A DNA stretch of 63,893 nt, the filler included, from Reticulomyxa filosa (Eukaryota; Protista; Foraminifera): NCBI GenBank assembly GCA_000512085.1. It is 15 parts of 15 records of this genome, joined end to end, with 100 filler letters (N's around TTAATTAATTAA, not from the genome) between each part and the next. Parts side by side here need not be neighbours in the genome. Positions count along the whole stretch, not along the records: positions 38,796 to 51,572 come from ASPP01004994.1; 14 more parts are not named here. One strand, written 5' to 3'. Shown in pieces: positions 10,489 to 51,243 of the stretch. How positions within the stretch are numbered: the stretch's first letter is position 1; the number at the start of each line of letters is the position of its first letter. Made by a program: the position numbers and the translations under genes. The notes beneath the pieces were generated by a model. That model did not search any database, had not been told where the DNA came from, and saw only the letters and a program-made list of their open reading frames with translations.

Positions 10489-12893
10489 ATGGAAAACATA
10501 GAAACTAGTCCTTCGAGTACATCATCACCACTAAAAGTTGGTGCGGTAATTTCTCTTCTGTGGCCAAAAGATAACGAATGGTATGTTGGTTTACTCATCC
10601 ATCGGTTTGAGAAAAGCCGCTTCGCAATTTATTTTCCAGACGACACGTTCACAGAGCCATTGAGTTATGACCTGTCGAAATACGAATACCGTGTGTTATC
10701 AAATCTGACTCAGGAAGAAATTTTACAATTTGCGGAGCCGTTCCGATCGCCCAAAGGGACGAAAGCCCAGGGTGGAGTGGACGCAGTAGGAGTAGCAACA
10801 AGTACAGTCGAATACGCGGTGGATTCGGTGGAGAATACCAACCAGACAAGCGGACACACGAAAGCACCCGACCATGCCCTTGGGAACGAAGAGATAAAAG
10901 AAGACACGAGACAGGAAGAAGAGGACGAAGACGAAGACGATGAAGTCGAGCCGGGAGAAGTGGAGTTCGAAGTCGAGGCCATCATCGACAGTGTCAATCT
11001 ACCAACCAAGTTGTATCGCGTTGAATGGCGCAATTACAAATTGGAAGACTGCACTTGGGAGCCGGACACACATTTGGACAAGGCATCTCAAGTGGTCGAA
11101 CAATATGTCAATAAACTTAGTTTTGTCATTGTTACTTGTTACAGTCATTATTCAAATTTCAAATGACAGCAATAATGAATAATGAATAATGAATAATAAA
11201 TAATAAATAATAAATAATAAATAATAAATATATAATATTTATTACTTATTATTTATTTTATTATTTATTATTTATTATTTGTATTATTTTATTTTAAAAT
11301 TGTATTTCCTTGGCTTTATCTCTTCTCTCCCCTCCTTCTTTCATCCTCTTGAAAAGTTGCGCAAAATCGCAATAGTTGTGATTGACCACATGTGACACAT
11401 ACACACATGAATAACAAATGGAAAAAACAACAACAACAACAACAACAACAACAGAACTTTTGAATCCGAGCGATCCCGAAGTGCAGCGCGTTCGAGCGAG
11501 TGACCGCGATCGGGCATTGTTGGAACAAGTGTGGATGTACTTGACGTACCCAGAGCAAATAAGCAACGAGAAGTACCGATCGATGATGGAATGGCTGGAA
11601 GGGGGCAAAGGGTTTGGAGTGAACAATAGCGAGTTGGTAACGGAGTGGTTGCAGTCGAAAGACTGCGCGTGGGTGACGTGGAAAGACGAGCATGGCGATG
11701 AGAGAGAGAGCAAAGACTCGTTTTGTCGCATTGAAACGTACGAAGAGTTTGCATTTCGATTGGCCGTGTTAGGATTTGAGCAAATGGTGCAACGCAAATT
11801 GTTCCATCACCCCTCGTTCAATCGTCAAAACAAGGATTGGATCCAGTGCATTGGACAAAGTTCCATTCCCAATAAGTTCACATCGATGGGCAAGGCCTCG
11901 CCTGCGGGACATCGACAGAGGGCTGCTGCCGCGAGCCAAGCCTCGGCAGCAGCAACGGCGGCAGCAGCAGCGAACAAGGCCAAGCCCAATGCGTTGAAGA
12001 CGGACGACAGCAAGAGTGCCTCCAAAGCCAGCACCTTGGGAGACCGCAGAATCAGTCGCAAGACATCCGCCACCATTGTCACGCCGATCAATCCTGATTT
12101 GCACGACGAAGACGACAGTGGCATCGATGAAAATGGATTGGTGGGCAGCGATGAGGACTTTAGTCTTTCTGTTCATTTGGGTGGCAAGCGACGCAAGTCC
12201 AAGCGATTAGTTGAGAGAAAAATCTCAAAGGGTTTTTTTTCTCCATAATTTATTCATATTTACATTACACACATACAATGGAACTTGCTATAAATCACAT
12301 TAAATCACATTAAATCACATTTAAAAAAAAAAAATGATCAATGAACAAATCAAAGATATTCGATTTGGATTGCTCGAATAGGCTCGCAACAAAAAAAAAG
12401 ACGAAAACAGAACTCTCGGAAAAGAAAATATGGAAGCATCGAAGAAAGTGCGAGCAAAAACACAGCGCTGACGAAAGAGAATGACGTCGAAGATGAAAAT
12501 GAAGACAACTGGAACGAACCCGCCAACAAGAAAAGAAAACTAAATCATAACAATACTGAAAAGTCGCGCACCTCCGCGAACAATACTCCACGCGTGTATG
12601 ACAAACAGTTGGATGTCATCATCCCAACTGAGTCGAACTTGGACTTAAACGACTGCCACTTGTGGTCCGAAGACCATGTAGCCACCTGGTTGCATTATAT
12701 GAACGATTGGGGGAAAAAGTATGTTCAAGCCTTCATGGATAACGGCGTCGATGGAAGGATCTTGCTAGAGTATGACATCAATGTCGTCTGCGATCTGTGC
12801 AAAGTCTCTCCGCAAGATCGCTCTCAATTCATCTTGGCTGTCAACCAACTCAGAAGTGTTCGAACTCGATGCTTAGGCTTCTCTCAAGCCTAA
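10489..12893 (+). CDS. Multi-exon chromatin-reader-like protein: Tudor-like + chromodomain + SAM
   Basis: Tudor-like VGAVISLLWPKDNEWYVG..FAIYFPDD; chromodomain FEVEAIID..LYRVEWRNYKLEDCTWEPDTHL; SAM WSEDHVATWL..YVQAFMDNGVDGRILL. The phase-1 intron at ~11120-11453 joins the first two ORFs in frame. The last splice is not resolved exactly. Confidence 0.8.
11170..11295. repeat. Intronic AAT(G/A)-rich microsatellite
   Basis: (AATAATG)n then (AATAATA)n, followed by T-rich repeats. Confidence 0.8.
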
Positions 12894-19699: not shown

Positions 19700-20600
19700 A
19701 AGATCCAGGTTCAAATTGTTTTTTTTTAGACATATTACAACAAATGAAAATATGATAAACAGAAAATATATTTACGCAAACCTTCGAATAGAGCTGCTAT
19801 CCATCGCGTTGATTGATACTTGTTTTTTTTTTCTTTCTTCGCCAGTTTGTTCATAACTACAGTAAAATTTTTTCTTATGGACTGATTTGTGAGCCTACTA
19901 CGATCACTCAGTGGGGACACAATTTGAAGAGGCCAACACGTGTAGCCAGAAGCAAGAGCAGCTCGAACATTTACAAATAGTACAAATGCCATTTGTTATT
20001 GAGGGTAAAAGACCACAATGCTTTTGACACACTATCCAAATATTGAGAGCTGAATCTTGCATAACAGCAGGAGCATAGTCCGAAAATGCAATACGTATAC
20101 GCCAACGTCTGTTGTTTAAATCGCAAAAGCATTTACTTGGCACAATGGATAAATCTTTTGGATAGATGTCTTGTTTTTTAAATCCACATCATCAGGAGAA
20201 TGACAGACTATTGTGAGTATAGTGGAGTGTGGATGGAGGTACCAAGAATTGCATACTTGTGCTTTGGTACGATATATCGGAGGTGACATGTAATGTGTAG
20301 ATATGTATCCACAGTCAGCGACAATTGGGACCTCCATGTTGAACATTGAAAGATGCTACTGGGTATGGTCGACCAATATCACATATGCAATCGACAAGTT
20401 ATTATGCGAAGTAAAACTGCAATTTGAATTTGATGTAACTTATTCTATTGGTAGTCGTTGTGTCATTATTTGTCACATGAACGGATTGTCATATTGGATG
20501 CAGAGTTAGTGGTCACTTGATAGAACGTCGTAATATTGCTGACACTTTGAATAGCGAAATGATAATATTGAACGCAGGTACAACTATATGAACTTCATTG
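19700..20600 (-). pseudogene. Decayed Cys-rich secreted/membrane protein gene
   Basis: Coding-like composition, broken into several short overlapping ORFs by stops and frameshifts. No family recognised. Confidence 0.4.
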
Positions 20601-21480
20601 CTTTTTTTCATTTCATTTATTTTTTCTTTTTTAATTTTCTCAATAATTTTTTTCTTTTTTCTTTTTTTACATTTATATTCTATTTTCTTCTTTTTTTCTA
20701 TTTTCTTCTTTTTTCCTTTTTTCTATTTTCCTTTTCTTTTTTTCCTTTTTATTATACAATTTTCTTTTTCTTATTCTTTTTTTACTTTATTTTTCTCCAT
20801 CCACCCACAATCAACTTCATTTCACTAATTATCTCAACAACTATTTTTAAAATAAAAATTAACTGATTGTTCATTGTATCTGACTTGCAATACTATATAA
20901 AAAACAAAATACCTTGATATGTAATCTCGTGGTTCAATCTCCATTCATATGATAAACACAAATATTTTTTTTTTTAGTTTGATATATTTTTAAAAAAATA
21001 TATAAATATGTGTAGCGTTGTCAGGGGGAATTCCTGTTGTACAACATAAATAATATTATTAAAAAAAGAAAAATATATAAATATAAACAAACATATAATT
21101 CTCCTTTCGGAGACTTGGATTTCTACCTTTTTTTTTTTTTTTTTTTGTGGAGGGGGAAAACAATATCTGGTCCAATCTTTGAGTCTAGGGTGAAATATTA
21201 TTTTACAAATACAGATCAGGTAAATATATCAAAAAAAAAAAGAAAAAACAAACTTAAGTTTCTCCTTTCGGAGACATAGTGTAGTTCTACACATTCTTCT
21301 TTTTTCATCAAAGTTTTTGTCATATATAAAAAGCCCACAAACAATCGTTTATAAATGAAGAAAGTATATACAAAAAATTATCTTACATTGTTGTTGCAAT
21401 GCACGATGTTGATATCAACTTTATCAAACAATAAGTATGGCACTTGAGTGCTTTCCAGATGACTTTTTGAGCATATAATA
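20600..21480 (-). repeat. Dispersed repeat element, copy A (pyrimidine tract, GGGGAATTCC, two CTCCTTTCGGAG hairpin units)
   Basis: Homologous by eye to 41480-42150 and, inverted, to 47330-48220. Confidence 0.8.
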
Positions 21481-21639: not shown

Positions 21640-22826
21640 CCTTTTGGTGACCTCGACACAATGAGTTCGACGATTGGTATTGGGACAGGCTGTATTTAGA
21701 TTAAATAGAATTAGCCTTTTGTTTTGTGAGTTGGCCTTGGCCGGCTGATTAGATTTGAGTGTTGGCATCAGTGTTGGGAATTGTCTTTGCGATGGGCGGT
21801 GAGCTTGTAAACGTCACACTTTATTCCAAAATTGACGATATTGTAGAATTGCTTCGCCCAGCTGCATCCAAACTCACATCACCAACTTTTTTATCAATTC
21901 TTCAATTTCTGCTCTTTTTTGAGCAAATCTATATTGTTTTCCTTTTGTGCATTCTTTGGCCATCTTGTCGCGTGGGACGATTGGGCATTGCGGTTGGCTT
22001 TCTGTTTGCTAAGTGACTATTATATGTTCAAAATGTCAGACGTCAAACGTTATCTTTTCTTAAAAAATAATAAGTTAAAACATTTTTTTCTTTACTGAAC
22101 AGTTTCACCAGCGGCGACATGATCGAATTTCAACAGTACATAATTTCTTCTTTGGCAATGAGCAAGTTTTTGCAATGTGCACATTTCGAGCATTGTATCG
22201 ATGTTGCGCTGTGTCGTCCCGATGTTTTGCTGTTCGTTTTTTAAATATTGTTTTTGTGTTATTTTTATTTTTATATGGGTAAAATTTGATATATGGGGGA
22301 ACAACGTATATATGTATGCAACAATGTGTTAATGGAAGGATGGTAATGTGTTGATGGGCAATGTATTTGTGTGGAAAATGTGACAGTAGTTGAGAAATGT
22401 GCTGACAGAGGGAAAAATGTGTTGGTGGGTGATCGATGTATTAATGTGGGGCAATGTGTTAGTGTGAGCAATATTTATGGATTAGTATGTGTTTATGGAT
22501 GAAAAAAATATTATTTTTTAATTACTCGCCGGTCCAGTACAACGTCCACCGGAATCAATTGCAATGAAACAATTATTCAAACATCAATTTGCATACATGA
22601 CTTATTCAAGTCACAAAATAAAGTTAGTCATTCCCTTCAACAAAATATATGTTTGCAAATACTGGCACTAGTTATCGACTTACCGTTTGATTAGGTCCAC
22701 CCGATCTAATTTCAATTTTTTTCCATTACGACTGACAATGCTGTCTTTTTTTGTTTTGTTAGCACCGCTTCGCCCACTGACCGCACCATGAGCAAGTTCG
22801 CTCGTATCAACATTTGCGCTACTCAT
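21640..22826 (-). pseudogene. Multi-exon gene relic of unknown family
   Basis: ATG at 22826 opens a 48-codon exon ending at a GTAAG donor. Later coding-like exons cannot be joined without stops or non-canonical splice sites. Confidence 0.35.
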
Positions 22827-38899: not shown

Positions 38900-39245
38900 A
38901 TCAAGTTTTGTATACAATTATTACATGTGGAGAATGAGCTAAAAAGGTTGACGAATGTAACCACAGTACTTCCCTCGATGCACAAGTATACGTATCCCAA
39001 AGTAATATGACGTCATCTACAGGTACGCCGTGGGAAGCTAGGACAAATGATCTTCATGACCTTTGTCAAGACACAGATAAAGTGCATTTTCGATGTCGCT
39101 CAGAATAAATCATCAAAATATGCTCGCTTATAACCCCATTCCACAAGAACTACCCATGTCTGGACCATCTTACCAGTTCCTTCTATACTTTAGTGGTACT
39201 GAACATGCCACTGTCTCTTCTATTGCGTTTGCTCCTTTCTGACAT
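38900..39245 (+). pseudogene. Deleted relic of the secreted-protein gene at 50490-51243
   Basis: Nucleotide homology to 50500-51040 with internal deletions. Confidence 0.7.
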
Positions 39246-39559
39246 TTTTTTTAAAAAAAAATTTGAATTAGTTGTAATCTTAAATGTTCCAGGTGATTAA
39301 TGATTTTTTTTGTATACGTTGTTTAAAGTATGTTAATTCATTGTACATTCTTTTTCAATCAGTTGGATCACAATTAAAGAATATCTCATATTTTGCTATC
39401 TTCACTTATTTCAATCGATCAGTTTAAATATGAATATGAATTAAATATATTTCAAAAATGTGAAAATATTTGAAAAATAACAATAGCAATAAAAACACAA
39501 CCATTTGCATCATGGCAACAACAGCAAATCACACAACAATGCTAAAAAGAAAAAAAAAC

Positions 39560-41000
39560 AACAAAATATGGAAGACTAATGTGTTCGTGTTGTATCGGAT
39601 TTTCATTATCGAAGGGATTGAATAGATAACAACATTGCACAATTTTGTATATTGTCTTTCATTTCCAGATTGTTTGTGTGCGCGTCGGTATTTAATTTGC
39701 TTCTACTGGTGCAGCAACAACACGCTTTGCAATATAGATTAAATCCCAATGATAACGATGATACAAGCAAAAGTGTCTTTGGCAGCAGCTAATGCAATAA
39801 GCGAAGCAAAAGAGGAGATACATAATTGATACGATTGCAATTCCAAGATTATATTATAATATCAGCCTTATCTCAAATACCCATGACAAAATAGCGACGA
39901 AACGGGGCCAATCAAAATGACAACCAATTGGAAAGTAGTATTTGTGGTCTTTGTGCTTATTCACATTTGAATACAATGCTTTGATCATTGTACAATGTGT
40001 TGAGCTGTTGGTTTGTCTCTGGATATAAATGGGATTGACATTGCTTCGACGTGGAATAATGGATAGTATTCGTGTTTGCAATGGCAGGGTTGTTCGTACA
40101 TTTGGTGAAACGAAGTGGCCATTGAAAACGCCAATATTACCACAATGACGAGATATGGTATTGAGATTATGAGAAAGACGATAATTGCTTTCTTGATTCG
40201 GATATCGTCTTGGAAAAGATCAACTAATCTTTGTTTAATTGAATTGAGTGATACTACCAATATTATTGTTTCACAATCCAATCTCTTAATGTATCTTTTC
40301 CATTCATATTATTCGTTGATGTTGTTGATATTATTTATCATGGAGCGATCACTATTTTATTATTTTCTGGATATCGTTTGCATACGAAATTTTTCTTTGT
40401 AGTTTTCGTGGATCTTTCACTCTTGCCAAGACAGCAATATTTGCTTCAGAATTTTTGCGCGTATCTTCTTCTTCTTCATTTGCGATATCATATCTTCACT
40501 ATTTGTGAACTTGGCATCTTCTAGTTATTGTAAAAACAAAAATAACAAACAACAAATTAATACAAATTGTTTAGAAAGAAAGATCCAAATAATCAATGAT
40601 TTTTAACTTCAATCGTCTTTCAAAAATATTCGAATAATATCCTGCCAATTTTACTTGACTGCATGTGTAATACTATTTTAATATTTTCCACCAAATGGAC
40701 ACCAATTGTATCTTGAAATGTTTGGATGCATCTTTGGTATGTCGACATCTGGGGAAGATCACAAATCATGCAAAGGAAGGCGGCCAATTATTTGGCGATT
40801 ATGTGCATTGCTGACTTGGAGTGAATTGAATGAAAGTATTGGAATGCCGTTGTGTGATTCAAGTAAATAACATTTCGTTGCCATTTATGTTTCATTGCCA
40901 TAAATTCATCCATAATCACTTACGGTCTTGATTAGACACATGGCAATACTTTTAGGAATTTGTTGTATTGACACTTTTCTCACATTACTGCTGTATTCTC
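39560..41000 (-). pseudogene. Decayed multi-pass membrane protein gene (paralog of 48680-49970)
   Basis: Hydrophobic ORF pieces (KKAIIVFLIISIPYLVIVVILAF; FQLVVILIGPVSSL) interrupted by stops. Confidence 0.6.
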
Positions 41001-41479
41001 TTGACAAGTAAACTTCTTGCACGATCATCGTAATCTATTATCTTTCTTGATATTACCCATATACTATTCGTCGATTTTTTTTCCTATGTTCTTAGCATAA
41101 TCTTTTTCTTCTTTTTCTTCTCTTTCTTCTTGTTTATTTTGCTCTTGTTCTTCATGTTTTTTCTTTTTCTTTTTCTTTTCTTTTTTTTCTTCCTTTTCTT
41201 CTTTTTCTTGTTATTGTTCTTCTTGTTTTTCTTGTTCTCCTTATTCTCATTGTTCTTGTCCTTCTTGTTCTTATTCTTGTCTCCTTCATGTCCTTCTTCT
41301 TTTTTTCTTATTTCTTCTTGATCTTGTGCTATTTTTCTTTCATTTCAAACCTAAAGTAATCATTCTACAATGAAAGTCCAAGCGCAAGTTATCTTTAGTA
41401 AGACATATACAATAACTCAAAATATGATAAACAAAATATACCTTCAAATATAGCACATTATCTATATATTGGTAGCCAT

Positions 41480-42150
41480 CGTGGTGCATGCTGTCTTCAT
41501 TATTATTTTTTTATTTTTCTTTATAAATGATCTTTTTTTTTCTTTTTTTCTTTTTTCTTTCTTTTTCTGTTTTTTTCTTTTTTCTTTTTCTTTCTATTTT
41601 CTTTTCTATTTTCCTTTTTCTTTTTTCTATTCTTTTTTTTTTTCCTCCATTTTCCTTTCTTTTATTATTTTATTTTTATTAATCCATTTTTTTTAAATAA
41701 AGGTACGTACATATGTTTTTTTTTTTGGATGGGGAATTCCTATTTCTTTACAAACAACCACATTATTTGATATAAGTATATAATACATAAATATAAACAT
41801 ATGCATACTTTTTTCGCTCCTTTCGGAGACGGGGCGGATTTCAACCCCGATTTTTTTTTCATTTTTTTTGTGTGTGGAAGTAGAGGAACCTATAGAACAA
41901 AGCAAACAACATTTAAATATATCAAAAAAAAAAGGTAATAACACAAACCTATTGTTCTCCTTTCGGAGACGGGGTTGGTTTCTACCCCATGTTCTTTTTT
42001 TTCATATTACAGCGCGGTGTTCTATTTGCACACATACATACAATATATATCATAAGTTAGATTTATAAAGAAAAGATTTACATTACCATGTGCATCATTT
42101 TGTAATGCAATGCTCGCAGTGCCATTTGTTATCAGCTCCTCCAATTCAAT
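41480..42150 (-). repeat. Dispersed repeat element, copy B
   Basis: GGGGAATTCC at 41731; hairpin units at 41817-41849 and 41957-41988. Confidence 0.85.
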
Positions 42151-43715
42151 AATTTAGCGCATTACTTATATATCTATGCTCCATACGTATTCCTATCCCA
42201 AGTCACAACAACGTGACAATTTATTATTGCAACAACAATAAAAAAATAAAGGTAACTTTGTAATACCACATGATATCAGCGACATTTTGAACTGGACAGT
42301 AACTTGGAATTGTCTGCATGTGTAATGAGTTATGATTTGCACAATGTTTTGATTAGTAGCGATGTTTGGACAAATAGTGGCAATTGTTGGAGGAGTAATG
42401 GCACAGTGTGGAGATAATGATTGCGTTTGTAATGATGGTGTGCATGTCCATGAGTATAGATATGGCGCATGTAAGTGTAATTGAAGGCAAACGCCTTTGT
42501 TGAATGAGCATTTATTTGCACAAAAGATGATGAGCATCACGACCGACTCGATCGTCAGATGCGTTATGCTCCAACCATCCCATTTGCGCAAATAGCGCTC
42601 AATCATTCAAATGCATTAGCCTAGAAATTGGGCAATAGCGACGCTTTCAATCACAATTTGTACCAGCAATTGCAGCCAGTTGACAATGTGTTAAAGCAAG
42701 CATCGTCATTTGCACTGCCCCACTTACAAGTTGCGTCGCATAATCGCAACAATTTTTTCACTGCACTATCGTCAGATATGTATATACAATTTTTTGTTTT
42801 ATTGTTTTTTTTTTTAAAAAAAAAAAAAAGAAGAAAAAAAAAGTTAACATTGCAGAATTGGACGGCATTGTAGAATTGACGTTGTTGGCATCGATGGTAT
42901 GATGACTTTTGATATGACACCGGACTGCACAATCATTTGAAATTGACTAGCCTTTGAATTGAATATTGAGACCCGGAAAGATAAATTTGCCATTGGTGTT
43001 GATACGGGTCGACATTGTAGATAGAATAGCTGATTGCACAATACTATATTTGAGTCTGATTGTCGGCGCAACATGAATTCATCATTTGATATTGATATTC
43101 TTATCATTACTTGATTTTGCCATCTGACAATGTAATTCTATTTATTTATTTTTTTAAAATTTTTAAAAATTAAATCAATCATGTATGCAATCCCTTCTCT
43201 ATCTTAATATATTTGCTATAAATAAACCTCCCCTTTTTTCATAGATCTTTCCATCACTATCATTTACCTGTGTGACACTGTCTCGAATGCTAATTTGTAA
43301 AAAGTCGACGAGATAACCAAAGCCAATTGTAGCATATTCATGGACTGCGTTTTGATAAACAAGTTCTTGGACATTTTTATATTGGCCAGCAGCGTGCTAG
43401 GGGAAAACGTATACTTCCGTTTTCTAATATCATTAACCCCTCGTTGGAAATTTGCACATCTGATAAAATTGTCAATTTGTAGATTTGTGCAAAGTGCAAA
43501 TATTTCCACGTCTTCAATGCCCACAATCCTTTAATATAGTAATTTAATAATGCGTTCCATAACGTTGCAAATATGACCATATTGATTTGATAATTCGAGT
43601 GTGTTTGTCCTATCGTCAAATTCTTGCTTAAGTTGAATATCACAATAGTTCCACTTGTCACCACTAAGGATGCATTTAATACATGCAATGCCATCAATAC
43701 CAACGACGCTTTCAT
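42100..43715 (-). pseudogene. Decayed multi-exon secreted Cys-rich protein gene (paralog of 45723-47360)
   Basis: Signal-peptide-like MKASLVLMALHVLNASLVV; shared SKNLT.G.THSN, YKLTILS and FPLARC; intron positions match the paralog; many stops. Confidence 0.65.
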
Positions 43716-44191
43716 GCTGCTACAAAATAGCCAAAGTTCTTCACTCGATACTTTCTCTTCCGTTTGTCCCCTCCAAACAAAAATAAAGGCAAAAGAATTG
43801 TATATTATATTACAGATATCTTTGCATTTTATATTGATATGTCGAAAGAATCACTTTTTTTGCAAAATTACAAGAAATTGTTAGCACTTTCTTCAAAAAA
43901 AAGAAAAATTTTGCATCAGCTACAGAAAGGATACTACAAACAAAATTGTCTTGATACAATTTAGCTTTTTCTTTCTTTCAAAGGTGACAAATTAGAGTAT
44001 TTTATTTGTAATTTTTTAAAAAAACTGTAATACTTGTCATTTTTTTTTTAACAGTTTATTATTGAAAAACTTGTGAAATTGTACAAAAACTCCACTTGAC
44101 GAAAAAAACTCTCGCTTAAACAAAAACTCTTAAAAATTTCTAACAAGCCCCTTCATCAAAATTTTTCAGCATTTCAGAGGAAAAAGTCACC

Positions 44192-45160
44192 ATGAGTGGC
44201 CAAATAGGAGCAGAAGAGGATCTTTTTAACGAAAAAAAAACCAACAACGGCAAAACGCAAAATGAAAACGAACAATTACGTTTAGCCAAAGAAAAACTGA
44301 GGCGATACTACCAATCACAAGATAAATTGGTCCCATTATTCGATGATCCTGAACAATCCATTGACACGTGCTACACTCGATTGGCTCTTTTGATCCAGCA
44401 ACAATTTCAACAACAAAAAGATAGAATGATCGACAATCAAGAAAAAGAAAAAAGCGAAGAAGATAAAAAAAATCAGGATTATAAAGAAGAAAATGGAGAA
44501 TGGCCAAATTCATTAAATTGTTCATTGACCTATAGAAATCAAACGAAAGATATCGAATTACAAGATATTTGGAATGATAGACAAAAAGGATTTAAAATAT
44601 GTCACATTAGTATCCAAGGAAAGGCAGAGAGTGGAAAAAGTGTGCTCTCTCAAAGAATTGCATATTTGTGGGGAAATTATCAAATGTGGAATCATCAATT
44701 TCAGTATCTATTGATGATATTGAATAGGTTATGAATGAATTACATATTCCTCAATGGAATTTAAATGGCACGAAATGGATTATTAATTCAATGAATGGAT
44801 TGTTATTATTATCGGATGGATTTGATAAAATTGCAAATGAAATTTAATTTAAATTGGTTGCAACATTGTATTTCAAATAAGAATTATTCCATAATCATGG
44901 CAAGTCGGCCCAATGCAATGTGTGAATATCTAAACAGTCCAGTAATGATAAATGGGATGAAATCATTCTTTTACAATTGTATGAGATATTGCTGAAAAGT
45001 TATATGAAATGGAATTGGATGAAATCAAATGAATTGAATAACAAATTAAATGGTGACAAGATATTTAAGATCTTTGAAATGGAAATGGATATTTATCTCG
45101 AATTGATAAGAAGGATTGAAATGTGAACAACCAATCATTTCTTGTGAAATTCAACATATG
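44192..45160 (+). pseudogene. NACHT (STAND) NTPase gene, truncated and frameshifted
   Basis: KLRRYYQSQDKLVPLFDDPEQSIDTCY.RLALL; degenerate Walker A ISIQGKAESGKSVLSQRIAYLW; Walker B LLLLSDGFD and IIMASRP in shifted frames after a stop at 44734. Confidence 0.85.
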
Positions 45161-45722
45161 ATAAAATATAAATATATAATGAAACACAAAAAGAATAAAA
45201 ATACCAATAAGCCAAGAAATTGTATGTTGTGTCCCATATGCACTTTTGCATTAATGATATTGACACGTCAGGAATACAAAAAATTTTTGTCAATATTTGC
45301 TATTGCCTTACATGACAAGACAATAAAGCAATCCTACGATGGTGTTACAATGATCTTATGAAATATGAATATTTTCATGCCAGAAGGCAACAAAACGTTT
45401 GTTCTTGCTTTCATTTGACTTTTTTTTATTGGAGATTTTTTTTATCCGTTCAGCCTTTTTATGTGATCAGGTTGCAATTAACTTGAAAAGAATTTTAAAA
45501 TGAAGAACACTAACTTTTTTGTCTGAACTATTGAAATGTATATAAACAAGTGCAACAAATTACATGCTCCCAATAAACTCAGTATTTCTACAAACTTTTT
45601 TTTTTTCTTAAAGTGACTTTATTATTTATTTGATATCTTTCCGTTTCATTGTGTCCAGTAGGAGTGGAGGGGCAAACGTAAGAAAAAAGATGAATCAACA
45701 ACATTGGTTATTTTGCTAAGAC

Positions 45723-47360
45723 ATGAAATTCTCGCTTATATTGGTGGCAATGCATGCATTCCTAGTTGTGTGGAGTGCGAATACATTTAATTCAAGCAAG
45801 AACTTGACGAACGGCCGAACACACTCTAATCACTACAGCAATATGTGCACATTGTCATTGAATAAATTTGTCAGCTACTATCTCAATTGCATGTGTATAT
45901 CAAATATATGGAAATGTGCACAATGCTCACGAAGTTACAAATTGACAATCTTATCATCCGTGGAATGTTCAACAAGTGGTCGGTGTTATCAGAAAGCAAA
46001 AGTATACGTTTTCCCACTAGCACGCTGTTGATCAATATAAAGTGTTGGGAGAATAGCTCATGTATCAAAACGTCAGTCGTGAATGTGTTCCGATCAACTT
46101 CTGGTGACTCGTCAACTTTTTTCAAATCGACATTCAAAGCAATGTCACACAGGTAAGCAACAGTGAAAAAAAAAAGTCAATAAAAAAATATATGTACACA
46201 CAAAAAAAAAAAGAATATGTACACAAAAAAAAATGTACATGAGAGAAAAAAATGATGTTTATTTCTATCAAGAGATAGTAAATGTGAAAAGTGGTTGTAT
46301 ATATGGTTTGTTTGATTACAAAAAATTATTTTTAAAAATAAAAACAGAATTACATTGGCATATTGCGAAGTTGATTTGTTGACACGCCACCATCAAATGA
46401 AGCTTGCTTGCTGTGTCGGATCCAATGCATGCGATATTCAAATGTGTGCACAGTCCGGCGTCAGTTCAAACATATTAAGCTCAACTATCACAACTTCGCC
46501 GGTAATGTTACAAATGCTATCCAATTCTGCATTGTTAAGTTTTTTACTTTTTCTTTTTTTTTTTTTTAAATGCAAACAAATAAACAAGCAAAAAAATTGT
46601 ACAGACCAAACAATAACACTGGAAAATGTTTGCGCGGTTTTGCGATGCCATTGGTGAACAGGACGTTTGCAAACGACGATACCGACTTTACCACAATGTT
46701 CGACCGGCTGTATTTGCTGGCACAAAGTGTGACTAAAAGTCAGTCGTCTTTGCTCAACTGTCTGGCACATGTCTTTGAAGTGAATGATGCGCTATTGGCG
46801 CAAGTGTGATGGATGGTGCATAACGCATCTGACGAGCAAGTCAGTCGTGATGCCCACCATCTGCTGTGCAAAGAAGCGCAACTTCTGCAAAGGCATTTTG
46901 TTCAATTGCAATCATGCAATCCGCGCGACATCTGTATACGTGGACAAAGTCGATTTGTATGCCATCGCTATTTCTGCAACACAATGGCACTATTCCTCCA
47001 ATCATGCCACTGTAATCCAAACATTGTCACTCATCCGATAACTGCAATTACTCATCCAAATATTATTGCATAAATCTCACAACATCGTGACGACAACATT
47101 AATATTGATATTTCATCACACACAAAGTTCCAAGTTATCCAAACGTCGGCGATATTTGTAACATTACAAAGTTATCTTTGTTTTTTTTTGTTGTTCTTGT
47201 GATAATATCCATTTTTTTTGCTGTGACTTGTGCATAGGAGTACGTACGGAGGACAATGTTGCGAAATGATGTTAAATTGGATGAAATCAAAGAACAAATT
47301 TCATTCGACGTTGCAAACAAGATTGGCTATCCATTGCAAGACTTTGGCGCTATATAATGT
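45723..47360 (+). pseudogene. Decayed multi-exon secreted Cys-rich protein gene
   Basis: Signal-peptide-like MKFSLILVAMHAFLVVWSA; introns at ~46153-46348 and ~46524-46603; stops and frameshifts. Confidence 0.65.
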
Positions 47361-48220
47361 ACAATCTTTTTGTATATGTCTAACTTAAGCTATATGTTTT
47401 GTGTTTTGCAAAATAGAATACCATGCTCTTATGATGAAAAAAAAAAGAATACGGGGTAGAAACAACCCCTGTCTCCGAAAGGAGAATATCAGTTTTGTTT
47501 TATTATCTTTTATTTTTGATATATTTAACTTTTGTATGATTTGTACCATAGGTTCCCCCGTCTGGTAAAGATTGCCCAAGTGATCCCTATCTCCATACAA
47601 AAAAAAAAATGAAAAAGAAAATCGGGGTTGAAATCCACCCCGTCTCCGAAAGGGGTAAAAAAAGTATTATTATGTCGTATTTATGTTTATACATACTTTT
47701 ATTAAATAGTATTGTTATGTTTGTGAAGTACAGGAAGCAGGAATTCCCCCTTCAAAAATATATATATTTGTATATATCTTTATTTATGCCCCTTCCTCCC
47801 TTAAAAAAAGTGTGAAGTATACCACATGAAAAAGGTAATGGAAATTTGATATCCTGGTCCGCTGGTCAAAGTTAAATATACTTTTTTGCTCGTCCTTCAA
47901 AAATTATAAAATATAACTCTGTGTGTATGGATATAGATGTTTGTTCTCTTGAAGGGGATTTGGGGAAAATAATAAAAAAAAATGCCATAAGTGGATAAAA
48001 AAAATGGATTAATAAAAAATAGAATAATAAGTTTGAAAAAAAAAGATTGGAGAAATTATTAAAAAGGAGAAAAAAAAAAGATGATAATAAAAAAGAAAAA
48101 AAGAAAAAAAAGAGAAAAAAGAAGACTGAAAAAGGAAAAAAAAAGGAAAAGGTAATAATGAAAGAAAAAAAAGAATAAGAAATGAAAAAAAGGTAATTGA
48201 ATTTTATTTAAAAAAAAGAA
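47330..48220 (+). repeat. Dispersed repeat element, copy C
   Basis: Hairpin units at 47452-47484 and 47623-47655; GGAATTCCCC at 47740; purine tract downstream. Confidence 0.85.
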
Positions 48221-48679
48221 TTATGGTATCCAGTTTGTGGATGCAAACAGTTAAGTATTTTCCCTTTTTTTTTATGTTTGTTTACTCAAAACAATGTGAA
48301 TCTGGACCTTTTCATTCTAGAATAATTTAATGTAGATTTGAAATGAAAGAAAGAAAGAAAAAGAAGAAGAAACAACAACAAGAAGAAGCAGAAGAACAAG
48401 ACAATGACAAAAAGAAGAAGAAGAAGGACACGAAGAAGGACATGAATAGCAATAATAAGAAGAAAAAGAAGAATGATAAGAAGAAGTATGAGAAGAAGAA
48501 ACAGAATAGAATGATATGAAGAAGAACGTGAAGAAGAACAAAAAGAAGGACTGAAGAAGGACTTGAAGAAGGACTTGAAGAAAACAAAAAGAATAAAACA
48601 AGAAGAATGAGAAAAAGAAAACGAGTATATTAATGAAAGAGGAAAAAAAAAGCAAAGTATATACAAATAGTATTAGTGA

Positions 48680-49970
48680 CATATTGGTCACTTCAAGAAT
48701 ATAACAAGTGGCGGTGGATAAATTTATCGAAAGAAGAAAGGAGATACAGTGGATGAATATGATAAACATAACAAATCTCTAAATGGTATTGACGTGGTTT
48801 CATCAAGACTATAAGTGATTATGGATGATATTTGTGAACATGAAATGCTATGTGCTTACTAATTACACAGTGCAATACTTTCATTCAATTCACCCCAGCG
48901 CAACAATTAGCATAATCAATCAAATACAATAGTCTTTTACATTTATTCTATGTATTTCTATCTAAACAATTTGAATTAATTTGTTGTTCATATTTGTTTT
49001 TACAATAACTAGAATATGCAAAGTCCATAAGAAGTGGAAGTAATGGAGCCGCAAGTAAAAAGAAGGAGACACGCTGAAGCAAATAATACTGTTTTGGTGA
49101 GAGCGGAAGTCACAAAAACAGAAGAAAAATTTGGGATGCAAAACATATTCAGAAAATAATAATGTGATCCTTCCATAACAAATAGCACAAACATCAACGA
49201 ATAGTGGCAATGCAAAAGACAATGAAGAGATTGGTTCAAGAAACAATATCGGTTATCTACAATTTGAGAGTATCGTTTGCACGTAATCAAATACAAATTT
49301 GGTGAATCTCTCTAAGGCGACATCCGAGTCAAGAAAGTAATGATCGTCTTTATTACGATACACATTCTATCAATATCATATCTCATTATTGTAGTAATAC
49401 CTCTGCACTTTCAAGAGCCACTCCATTTTGCCAAGCGTGAACAGTTCTGTCATGATAAACATGAACACGACTAACAATTCCGAGTCGAAGCAATGCCTCT
49501 CCCTTTGCATTCATTCATATTCGGAGACAAAGCAATAGATCAACACATTATGCAATGATCAAAGCATTATATTAAATGTGGATATAGCAAGACCATGAAT
49601 TCTGCCTTTCAATTGGTTTTCATTGCAATTGGCTCCGTTTCGTCATTTTTATCATGGGCACTTGAGACAGCGTTGATATCATTGTCTAATCTTGGGTGTT
49701 GCAATTGTATCAATAATGTCTTATCTTCTCCTTCTTCGCTTATTGGATTGCCTGCTGAAAAACCTTTCGACTGTACCATCAGCGTCGTCATTGAAATCCA
49801 ATTGAATTGCAAGGCGTGTTATTGCCGCACCAGTCTAATCAACTACACTTATTATGGGCTCGGTATGTACGCAAACCACGCGGAAATGAAAAACAGCATT
49901 GTCACAATATACAAAATTTTGCAATGTTGCCCTTCGACGATATGAATATGCTACAACAAGAGCATATTAA
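48680..49970 (+). pseudogene. Decayed multi-pass membrane protein gene
   Basis: Homologous to rc of 39560-41000 (for example FQLVFIAIGSVSS); multiple stops. Confidence 0.6.
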
Positions 49971-50489
49971 TTCTTTCTTGTTTTTTTAGTCTTATTGTGT
50001 GATACAAATGATTGTATTTAAATTGTTGTTACTTTTTTTTTTTTGCAATATCGTCGAATTTTTGAAATCTTTTTTCAACTATCCTTTGTTTGCATCAATA
50101 TCTGAGCCAGTCGATTGAAATGAGCAATCCAAAAAAGGTTAAATCAATCCTTTGCTGTAATCTTCTGTTTCCTTCTTGGAGAGTTTGTTTATGGATTCAT
50201 TTTTCTATTTCACTAAACTTTTGTGATGAATAATGTCACTTGAGAAAAAAAGACAGCATCCTTTTCTTTTTGAAAATAACAAAAAAAGGTGAAAAAATTA
50301 TCGAAATATGAGCTATTCGTTAATGTGGCCCAACTGATTAAAAAATATTGAGAAATGAACAATAAGTTGGCATATTTCAAACAACGTATACAAAAATGTG
50401 AAAAGATACACGCATAAAAAAAAAAAATCATGAGCCACCTAGAACATGTACACATATATAAGATCACAACTAATCCAAACAAGCAAACA

Positions 50490-51243
50490 AAAAAAAAATT
50501 ATCAGCAAGGAGCAAAGCGGCTATAAGAAACAGCGACCGGTTGTGACGTAGTCTCAGTGCCTCCAAAGTAGAGTATGAACTGGTACGATGGTCCCGGCAT
50601 GGGTGGTTCTTGCGGAGTAAAGTTATAAGCGAGCAAGGTTTGATGCGTGTCATCCTAAATGTTATAAGTGCAGTTGAACTTATTTTGAGTGACTTCGAAA
50701 ATATACTGTGTCTGTGCATTGACAAAGGTCATGAAAGGCATCTGTCCAGGGGTTTCCCACGGCGGTAAGCGATGGTTCTTCCATCCGTATCCATAGATGG
50801 CGATCATATCACTTTGATTTACGTATACTTGCGGATCGGAGAAGTATCGACGCCATCCGAAAATACATGACATGTGCATGACTGGAATAAAGCCTCGTGA
50901 AAAACCAAACAACTTGTTTACGTTCGAACACCATACGTCAATGTCGCAAGGATAAGTTAATGTGTTGTTGTGGAACACTACGCGATACGTGAGTGTGGTT
51001 GCATTCGTCAATCCTTTCAGTTCGTTTTCCACTAATAACTCCTCGTCATGTGCGTCCACATTGTGTCGGTTTGCTGGCACTGTCACACACCCAGTCTTCT
51101 GTTGAACAGTTTTGCACTTGGTTGCACCTAATGCAAGGGTCGTTCGACGGGCATGTGTTCATGTCACCGGTCACTACTAGTAGCGTCCATGCAGCAAAAA
51201 TGATACATCATAACACCCACCACAATGACACGCTCTTTTTCAT
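50490..51243 (-). pseudogene. Secreted protein gene with premature stops and a frameshift
   Basis: MKKSVSLWWVL*CIIFAAWTLLVVTG followed by a Cys-rich segment, a frameshift into the 143-aa ORF, and read-on past a stop (DDTHQTLLAYNFTPQEPP). Confidence 0.6.

Follow-up and report, generated by a model that had tools for sequence, protein, structure and literature searches.

Paired hairpin units at predicted exon ends of a decayed gene family in Reticulomyxa filosa

Described hairpin systems compared with the units

Autoregulatory structures of the yeast RPL30 type are exonic cis-acting hairpins located beside a 5' splice site. The six double-hairpin units analysed here were found in a window of 63,893 nucleotides, composed of 15 contigs of Reticulomyxa filosa with 14 spacers between them. 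Like the RPL30-type structures, the units contain a hairpin on the sense strand that is short and stable and keeps a fixed spacing to a donor, they overlap coding sequence and their synonymous sites are frozen. Nucleotide constraint beyond the protein code, a hallmark of cis-acting mRNA structures, was found in them. They differ in being a tandem duplicate with an intron, in having no known ligand or Rfam family, and in that no intact family member was found. Surface-gene families of the trypanosome VSG type are hypervariable, with many pseudogenes and conserved 3' motifs. The family described below resembles them in its short invariant blocks within members whose coding parts are freely diverging or, like the third locus, different upstream, and in a start that by eye looks like a signal peptide, but its blocks are hairpins in predicted spliced exons and no homology is claimed.

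The double-hairpin elements (DHEs) of fungal mitochondria are described in PMC10085805 as short, GC-rich and unusually conserved two-hairpin units in AT-rich DNA, mostly intergenic and potentially mobile alone, which were found by a scan for GC above 75%. In contrast, the units of R. filosa are nuclear with a GC content of 45-64%, lie in predicted exons in an intron-bearing context and move with homologous flanks. A mitochondrial double-hairpin element was rejected on these grounds, the likeness being one of shape. In the literature beyond the Glockner 2014 genome paper and its supplements, in which a repeat catalogue is possible, no structured RNA or cis-element was found described in Reticulomyxa. 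Repeats account for about 30% of the R. filosa assembly according to PMC13746701.

An independent small RNA gene, whether Pol III or SINE-like (for instance on the opposite strand, ending in a T-run), a snoRNA, a spliced-leader RNA or a ribozyme, is very unlikely in our judgement. The earlier note on this DNA had suggested a small RNA, but Rfam gave no match at gathering score in the whole window, the best E value at the three loci and an upstream hairpin was 0.33, and scans at the unit loci gave best E values of 0.43-0.5 at 18-22 bits compared with cut-offs of 47-60. In the opposite orientation every unit presents its two hairpins with a T-run behind them, and two of the units are one mismatch off the B-box consensus behind the earlier guess of a SINE-like dimer. 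That guess failed across the six units (1, 1, 2, 3, 4 and 4 mismatches); no A-box was found before the B-box on the GAAA strand at the units, no tRNA was found, and the A-run is located 5' of the units and does not form a SINE tail. The sequence CUGANGA, which is the hammerhead ribozyme core (Penelope or retrozyme type), had no match on either strand of the three modules. A perfect box C precedes one unit 1, in the right arm only (one of the three loci), with sense-strand CUGA at the third locus only, and a box C/D snoRNA was not recognized. Nor was a spliced-leader RNA, since the 8 nt before the donor vary and no Sm site (RAU4-6GR) was present; the Sm part of this test is weak, because the spliced-leader RNA of P. 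micropora has no typical Sm site (PMC6053224). The same source reports spliced-leader trans-splicing as not found in R. filosa.

Sequence, fold and predicted exon-intron setting of the units

The letters and coordinates of all six units (Table 1) and the A-run before every unit agreed with the earlier note, and the direct pairs, described as 140-171 nt apart, had measured spacings of 140, 171 and 161 nt. The 13-mer TCTCCGAAAGGRG had 6 matches in the window compared with 0.03 expected, and a covariance model built from the six units gave these six scores of 67-81 bits, whereas no other match exceeded 25 bits. The proposed two-hairpin fold was obtained on the GAAA strand with z scores of -1.1 to -3.5, except that stem 1 has only two pairs in the unit at 21101; folds of the opposite strand were weaker. 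A possible, very degenerate third unit was observed at 21640-21675 (minus strand), 370 nt upstream of unit 1 of the third locus, where the core has two mismatches, reads VELIVSR and is followed by GT. An unrelated 7-bp GAAA-capped hairpin was also observed at 11650-11667 (plus strand) within an intact-looking coding frame, which indicates that such hairpins arise by chance in exons here.

Table 1. Positions of the units, hairpins and predicted gene features along the window
Feature	Position	Strand	Remark
Inverted duplication, left arm	39026..43775	-	69% identity to right arm over aligned columns
Inverted duplication, right arm	45665..50764	+	decayed multi-exon gene, then module, GA-rich tract, more gene relics
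Truncated NACHT-type gene in spacer between head-to-head arms	44192..44734	+	PF05729, E 0.001, under curated cut-off
72-nt bulged hairpin, left arm	42518..42589	-	
Predicted exon 5, left arm	41949..42021	-	73 nt; in-frame TAA 18 nt before GGGG, then unit 1
Unit 1, left arm, double hairpin	41957..41988	-	reads GVETNPVSERR
Predicted intron between left-arm units	41890..41948	-	59 nt, T-rich
Invariant TTTTTGATATATTTA in left-arm intron	41914-41928	-	possibly branch region
Predicted exon 6, left arm, with unit 2	41809..41889	-	81 nt
Unit 2, left arm	41817..41849	-	reads GVEIRPVSERS
Predicted intron after left-arm exon 6	41740-41808	-	69 nt
Invariant AGGAATTCCCC across acceptor, left arm	41731-41741	-	
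Upstream predicted exons, right arm	about 45723-46152, 46348-46533, 46605-47170, 47238-47358	+	
72-nt bulged hairpin, predicted exon 3, right arm	46798..46869	+	same strand as units; about 600 nt upstream
Right-arm module	47417..47749	+	
Predicted exon 5, right arm	47417-47491	+	usable GT 7 nt past hairpin
Unit 1, right arm	47453..47484	+	letters confirmed, folded
Predicted intron after exon 5, right arm	to 47551	+	TTTTTGATATATTTA motif at 47513-47527
Predicted exon 6, right arm	47552-47663	+	
Unit 2, right arm	47623..47655	+	letters confirmed, folded
Predicted intron after exon 6, right arm	47664-47740	+	AGGAATTCCCC at 47739-47749
Third-locus module	21025..21404	-	donor 21386; introns 21185-21253, 21034-21092
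Unit 1, third locus	21262..21292	-	stem 1 re-paired, register shifted
Unit 2, third locus	21101..21127	-	lacks 3 nt and has lost stem 1; stem 2 kept intact
Invariant motifs, third locus	21221-21235, 21025-21035	-	

The earlier note had counted three loci, but these are not three independent ones. The unit pairs at 41.8 kb and 47.5 kb are on the same contig in opposite arms of one inverted duplication (39026-43775 aligned with 50764-45665, arms of about 5 kb each), while the pair at 21 kb, the third locus, is on a separate contig. What it has in common with the arms is the module and downstream patches, the shared sequence continuing patchily to about 19300. The head-to-head arrangement of the arms at 43800-45650 around the truncated NACHT-type gene could be due to a foldback duplication, or the arms could be giant inverted repeats belonging to a single element. 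A 167-codon open frame with no Pfam match is located at the right arm's outer end (50655-51158, minus strand); its left-arm counterpart is deleted.

On the GAAA strand of both arms, GC-richer blocks alternate with AT-rich GT...AG blocks, which are mostly T-rich and 58-77 nt long. Exons and introns were predicted from GT/AG and composition, with splice sites picked by eye, and the retention figure of 11/13 was counted by hand (background 42-45%). When the whole window was searched with an automated frame-joining scan, two right-arm introns were found unprompted, and the candidates in intact-looking genes had similar donors, e.g. GTATAG and GTTTGG. The mean intron of R. filosa is 87 nt (PMC13746701), and spliceosomal introns are reported as common in foraminifera (PMC3079666). 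Spliced in silico, the left arm gave one frame over exons 4-7 with three predicted junctions, while in the right arm a single frame extended from the last part of exon 3 into exon 7 across four. The units, previously described as non-coding, are parts of predicted exons. One frame of the GAAA strand, when spliced, is open across them, and in it G-V-E-x-x-P-V-S-E-R is read twice in both arms. In the same frame a stop is located 18 nt before unit 1 in each arm.

In five of the six units a GT is found exactly 8 nt past the hairpin. Because these five units end at this fixed distance from a GT, the best reading of the unit pair, with the splice sites as predicted here, is that an exon end and its intron were duplicated in tandem within a decayed gene spliced on the GAAA strand; this was missed by the earlier note. 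Our tentative explanation is that the units are the conserved 3' ends of tandemly duplicated predicted exons, and probably cis-acting pre-mRNA hairpins that have outlasted the reading frame. Several details weigh against it. In unit 1 of the right arm the +8 donor position is occupied by TT, with GT one base earlier. At the third locus the frame is maintained as far as unit 1 but is off by one base over exon 6, which has a very long A-run inside, and the exon-5 acceptor of this locus has no AG.

Nucleotide constraint, protein drift and pairing

As the earlier note had claimed, the units were more conserved than their flanks: when the two arms were compared over 66 nt, 6 mismatches were counted and 20.5 expected (P 2e-5); among the other 33-nt windows (n=1740), 0.06% had at most 2 mismatches and 3.7% at most 4. 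Over the three loci, 27 of the 28 columns of the 14-nt core GTCTCCGAAAGGRG were invariant, against 175 of 363 (48%) in the rest of the module, i.e. one change in the core where about 22 (22.5) were expected. Since the core was picked for being conserved its P values are post hoc, and the constraint tests on units, core and blocks are all to be read as such. No change was found at the third codon positions of V, S, E and R, compared with 5-10 expected, and pS was 0.19 in the units versus 0.40. The blocks TTTTTGATATATTTA in the intron and AGGAATTCCCC at the next acceptor were also invariant and were present only at the three loci in the window.

The arms diverge neutrally as protein. The dN/dS of the arm exons was 0.64 over 270 codons, compared with 0.66 +/- 0.11 in neutral simulation, and the other reading frames of the arms gave 0.62-0.97. 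The earlier note had named purifying selection on the antisense frame FSFRRRGWFLP as a finding that would speak against its reading; no such selection was found (pS 0.17, pN 0.19) and this frame was rejected.

A plain coding relic was considered, in which a duplicated exon encoded the peptide VE-x-x-PVSER, the hairpins arose by chance and the conservation came from protein selection on a source gene. We regard this as unlikely. It would account for the distances from GTWGAA to GTC (15 nt in five units and 12 nt in one) and from the aligned acceptor to GTAGAA (36, 39 and 30 nt), for the predicted in-frame splicing of both arms despite different donors, for the three annotated proteins that read unit 2 in the unit frame, and for the low number of stops in sense frame 0, which had 8 whereas the others had 16-27. 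Against it, the synonymous sites are invariant, the rest of the frame is neutral and interrupted by the stop before unit 1, invariant blocks extend into the intron, double changes in the 72-nt hairpin described below alter amino acids, and no intact member was found in the database search.

The same stop and the A-run could also be taken for parts of a recoding signal, with the hairpins promoting either readthrough of the stop codon or, on the A-run immediately before them, a -1 frameshift. In the three unit-1 copies A AAA AAG is located 5-6 nt before stem 1. However, AAAAAAG occurs 162 times in the window, the stop precedes the slippery site in the spliced frame and is missing from that frame at the third locus, so we give a recoding signal hardly any credence.

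Covariation in the units, as claimed by the earlier note, was not observed. The six-unit alignment is gap-free save one 3-nt deletion, and in it none of the 11 pairs was changed on both sides; the covariation score of 0.085 was under the shuffled mean, and 472 of 500 shuffles were as high. The G-C to U-A compensatory change reported before appears only when the register of stem 1 is shifted, and register-shifted alignment is of the kind able to create spurious covariation (PMC11234323). A stem of at least 5 Watson-Crick pairs re-formed in 6-8% of the neutral simulations. Stem 2 is nearly invariant, so that the covariation test in the units has no power. Of the claim that pairing is kept strand-specifically, what stood were four one-sided changes, all of them G.U on the GAAA strand (0.5^4, weak). 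The absence of any two-sided change in the units, together with a stem 1 that was lost in one unit and slipped in register in two, also counts against pre-mRNA hairpins.

The covariation evidence was better in a 72-nt bulged hairpin located upstream of the units. Among 212 window-by-strand consensus folds along the arms, this hairpin ranked first (z -7.2), followed by unit 2 in rank 2 (z -7.0), with unit 1 in rank 5 (-4.8), all on the GAAA strand; the column shuffles behind these scores ignore dinucleotides, and one AT-rich window also reached z -5.6. The hairpin itself had z scores of -4.4 and -5.7 on the GAAA strand versus -3.0 and -3.3 on the other strand. All 27 pairs were kept in both arms, 5 pairs being changed and still able to pair. 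Amino-acid-forced changes affect 7 pairs in RFI_34387 and RFI_38749, annotated copies that had not been used to derive the structure from the two arms, and pairing remains possible in all 7, a comparison that covers four copies only. Two of these are double changes, likewise forced, in RFI_38749: one pair went from U-A to A-U and the other from C-G to U-A, and amino acids are altered on both sides. No Rfam family matched the hairpin, and it is absent at the third locus, a further point against our explanation. Taken from sequence comparison, the 72-nt hairpin is the best evidence that a single-stranded structure of the sense strand, and not a peptide, would have been kept. The proposal of a selected, strand-specific structured element is partly supported, by the sequence constraint and by this covarying hairpin on the same strand; covariation within the units lends it no support.

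Four exact copies of the 9-mer GTCAGTCGT are present in the window, at 46072, 46739 and 46840 on the plus strand and at 22728-22736 on the minus strand. All four are on the GAAA strand, upstream of a unit pair and no more than 1.5 kb away from it. Each of the three in the right arm has a different phase of the inferred frame, and in the left arm the 9-mer is degraded.

The gene family and the explanation of the units

The right-arm frame had 74% identity to RFI_34387 of R. filosa. A profile of the unit frames retrieved 3 proteins out of 7183 candidates, all of them R. filosa hypothetical proteins reading through unit 2. When RFI_34387 was searched exhaustively against 1.84 billion protein representatives, the query and 8 others were recovered, all R. 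filosa singletons, and no intact family member was found among the 8 relatives. All 11 annotated copies map to the arms, mostly as pieces from several frames, and look like gene predictions made on frameshifted copies. These represent no fewer than 11 decayed copies besides the three loci of the window and are located on 11 further contigs, and every annotated copy found is from R. filosa, which places the units in a species-restricted family with at least 14 loci. With Pfam, neither RFI_34387 nor any of 21 translated frames gave a match at E < 0.01, the left-arm exon-1 frame had no homolog among proteins of 238-2000 aa, and an Atlas look-up of RFI_29452 gave no usable match. The exact unit pattern had no match in metagenome contigs, prokaryote genomes or viral contigs. 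Two viral matches to a looser pattern, one scoring 17.6 bits by the model and the other absent from the model's matches, were taken as chance.

In a peptide comparison of the copies the core was identical at 8-9 of 10 positions compared with 6-12 of 23 downstream, a difference that is biased because the copies were found via the core. Two of three further annotated copies have changes in the core, which again counts against our explanation: in RFI_37936 an E to K change removes the G of the GAAA loop, and in RFI_35420 a G to R change affects the first G of stem 1.

Since introns are retained in the copies, copying goes through DNA, and the number of decayed copies together with the inverted duplication would fit a DNA-level cause. 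A non-autonomous mobile or amplified segment could need the hairpins for copying, or template switching or short gene conversion could keep them, with the gene relics as neutral cargo. C(GAAA)G also forms a stable DNA mini-hairpin. Template switching can create and maintain hairpins (PMC8794818), and non-autonomous Helitrons, as presented in PMC4778049, likewise comprise many decayed intron-containing gene pieces with conserved hairpins. The same source places a palindrome about 11 nt upstream of the CTRR terminus at the Helitron 3' end. A Helitron insertion is further expected between A and T, with homology stopping at the terminus and a RepHel transposase encoded by autonomous partners. Here the module is internal and has no fixed ends that we found, and the earlier guess of a mobile-element terminus was not supported: no CTRR follows the hairpins within 25 nt of any of the six units on either strand, and homology of the arms does not end at a terminus but extends kilobases further in either direction, with 1.8 kb on the upstream side and 3 kb on the downstream side. 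No RepHel domain, transposase or Rep family was found in the 21 translated frames scanned. Target-site duplications were not found either, as no flanking k-mer of 6 or longer was shared at two loci, with one AT-rich 6-mer at the third. Palindrome repair would presumably be strand-symmetric, whereas the one-sided changes are of the G.U type on one strand and folds of the other strand are weaker. We regard a DNA-level cause, too, as unlikely.

A more far-reaching possibility, which we also consider improbable, is that a protein gene has become a family of spliced structured non-coding RNAs, or a selfish gene unit recognized through its RNA. Selection would then keep the splice signals, the 72-nt hairpin and the tandem GAAA double hairpins while the frame is dead. 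If true, the transition from a protein gene to an RNA gene would be caught across many copies of one genome.

Under our preferred reading of the units as hairpin-bearing exon ends, the ancestral gene would have been spliced on the GAAA strand, with both units translated as G-V-E-x-x-P-V-S-E-R. Duplication of one exon end with its short intron would have generated the direct pair. A putative RNA-binding factor would bind the C(GAAA)G hairpin, which precedes the 5' splice site by 8 nt; together with the invariant intron and acceptor motifs, this hairpin may steer splicing or stability of the transcript. This RNA role could persist in these or in source copies after protein selection ended. Judged from its sequence, the element is real, undescribed and nucleotide-constrained. 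It was first proposed to be a covarying RNA that stands alone, which it is not. As the family has many paralogous copies, covariation can be tested within one genome. If the mass of decayed genes keeps selected RNA structure, some "pseudogenes" would be RNA genes or carriers of propagation signals; if not, the units would represent tandem exon duplication in a dead gene family.

Two minor observations concern the make-up of the family. The first exon (45723-45790, plus strand, and 43650-43715, minus strand) has, by eye, a hydrophobic signal-peptide-like start common to several annotated copies. At 19800-20580 (minus strand), a stretch present at the third locus only looks like the decayed remains of a zinc finger of the RING/IBR type (zf_RING-like in Pfam, E 0.039), which suggests that members of the family are mosaics.
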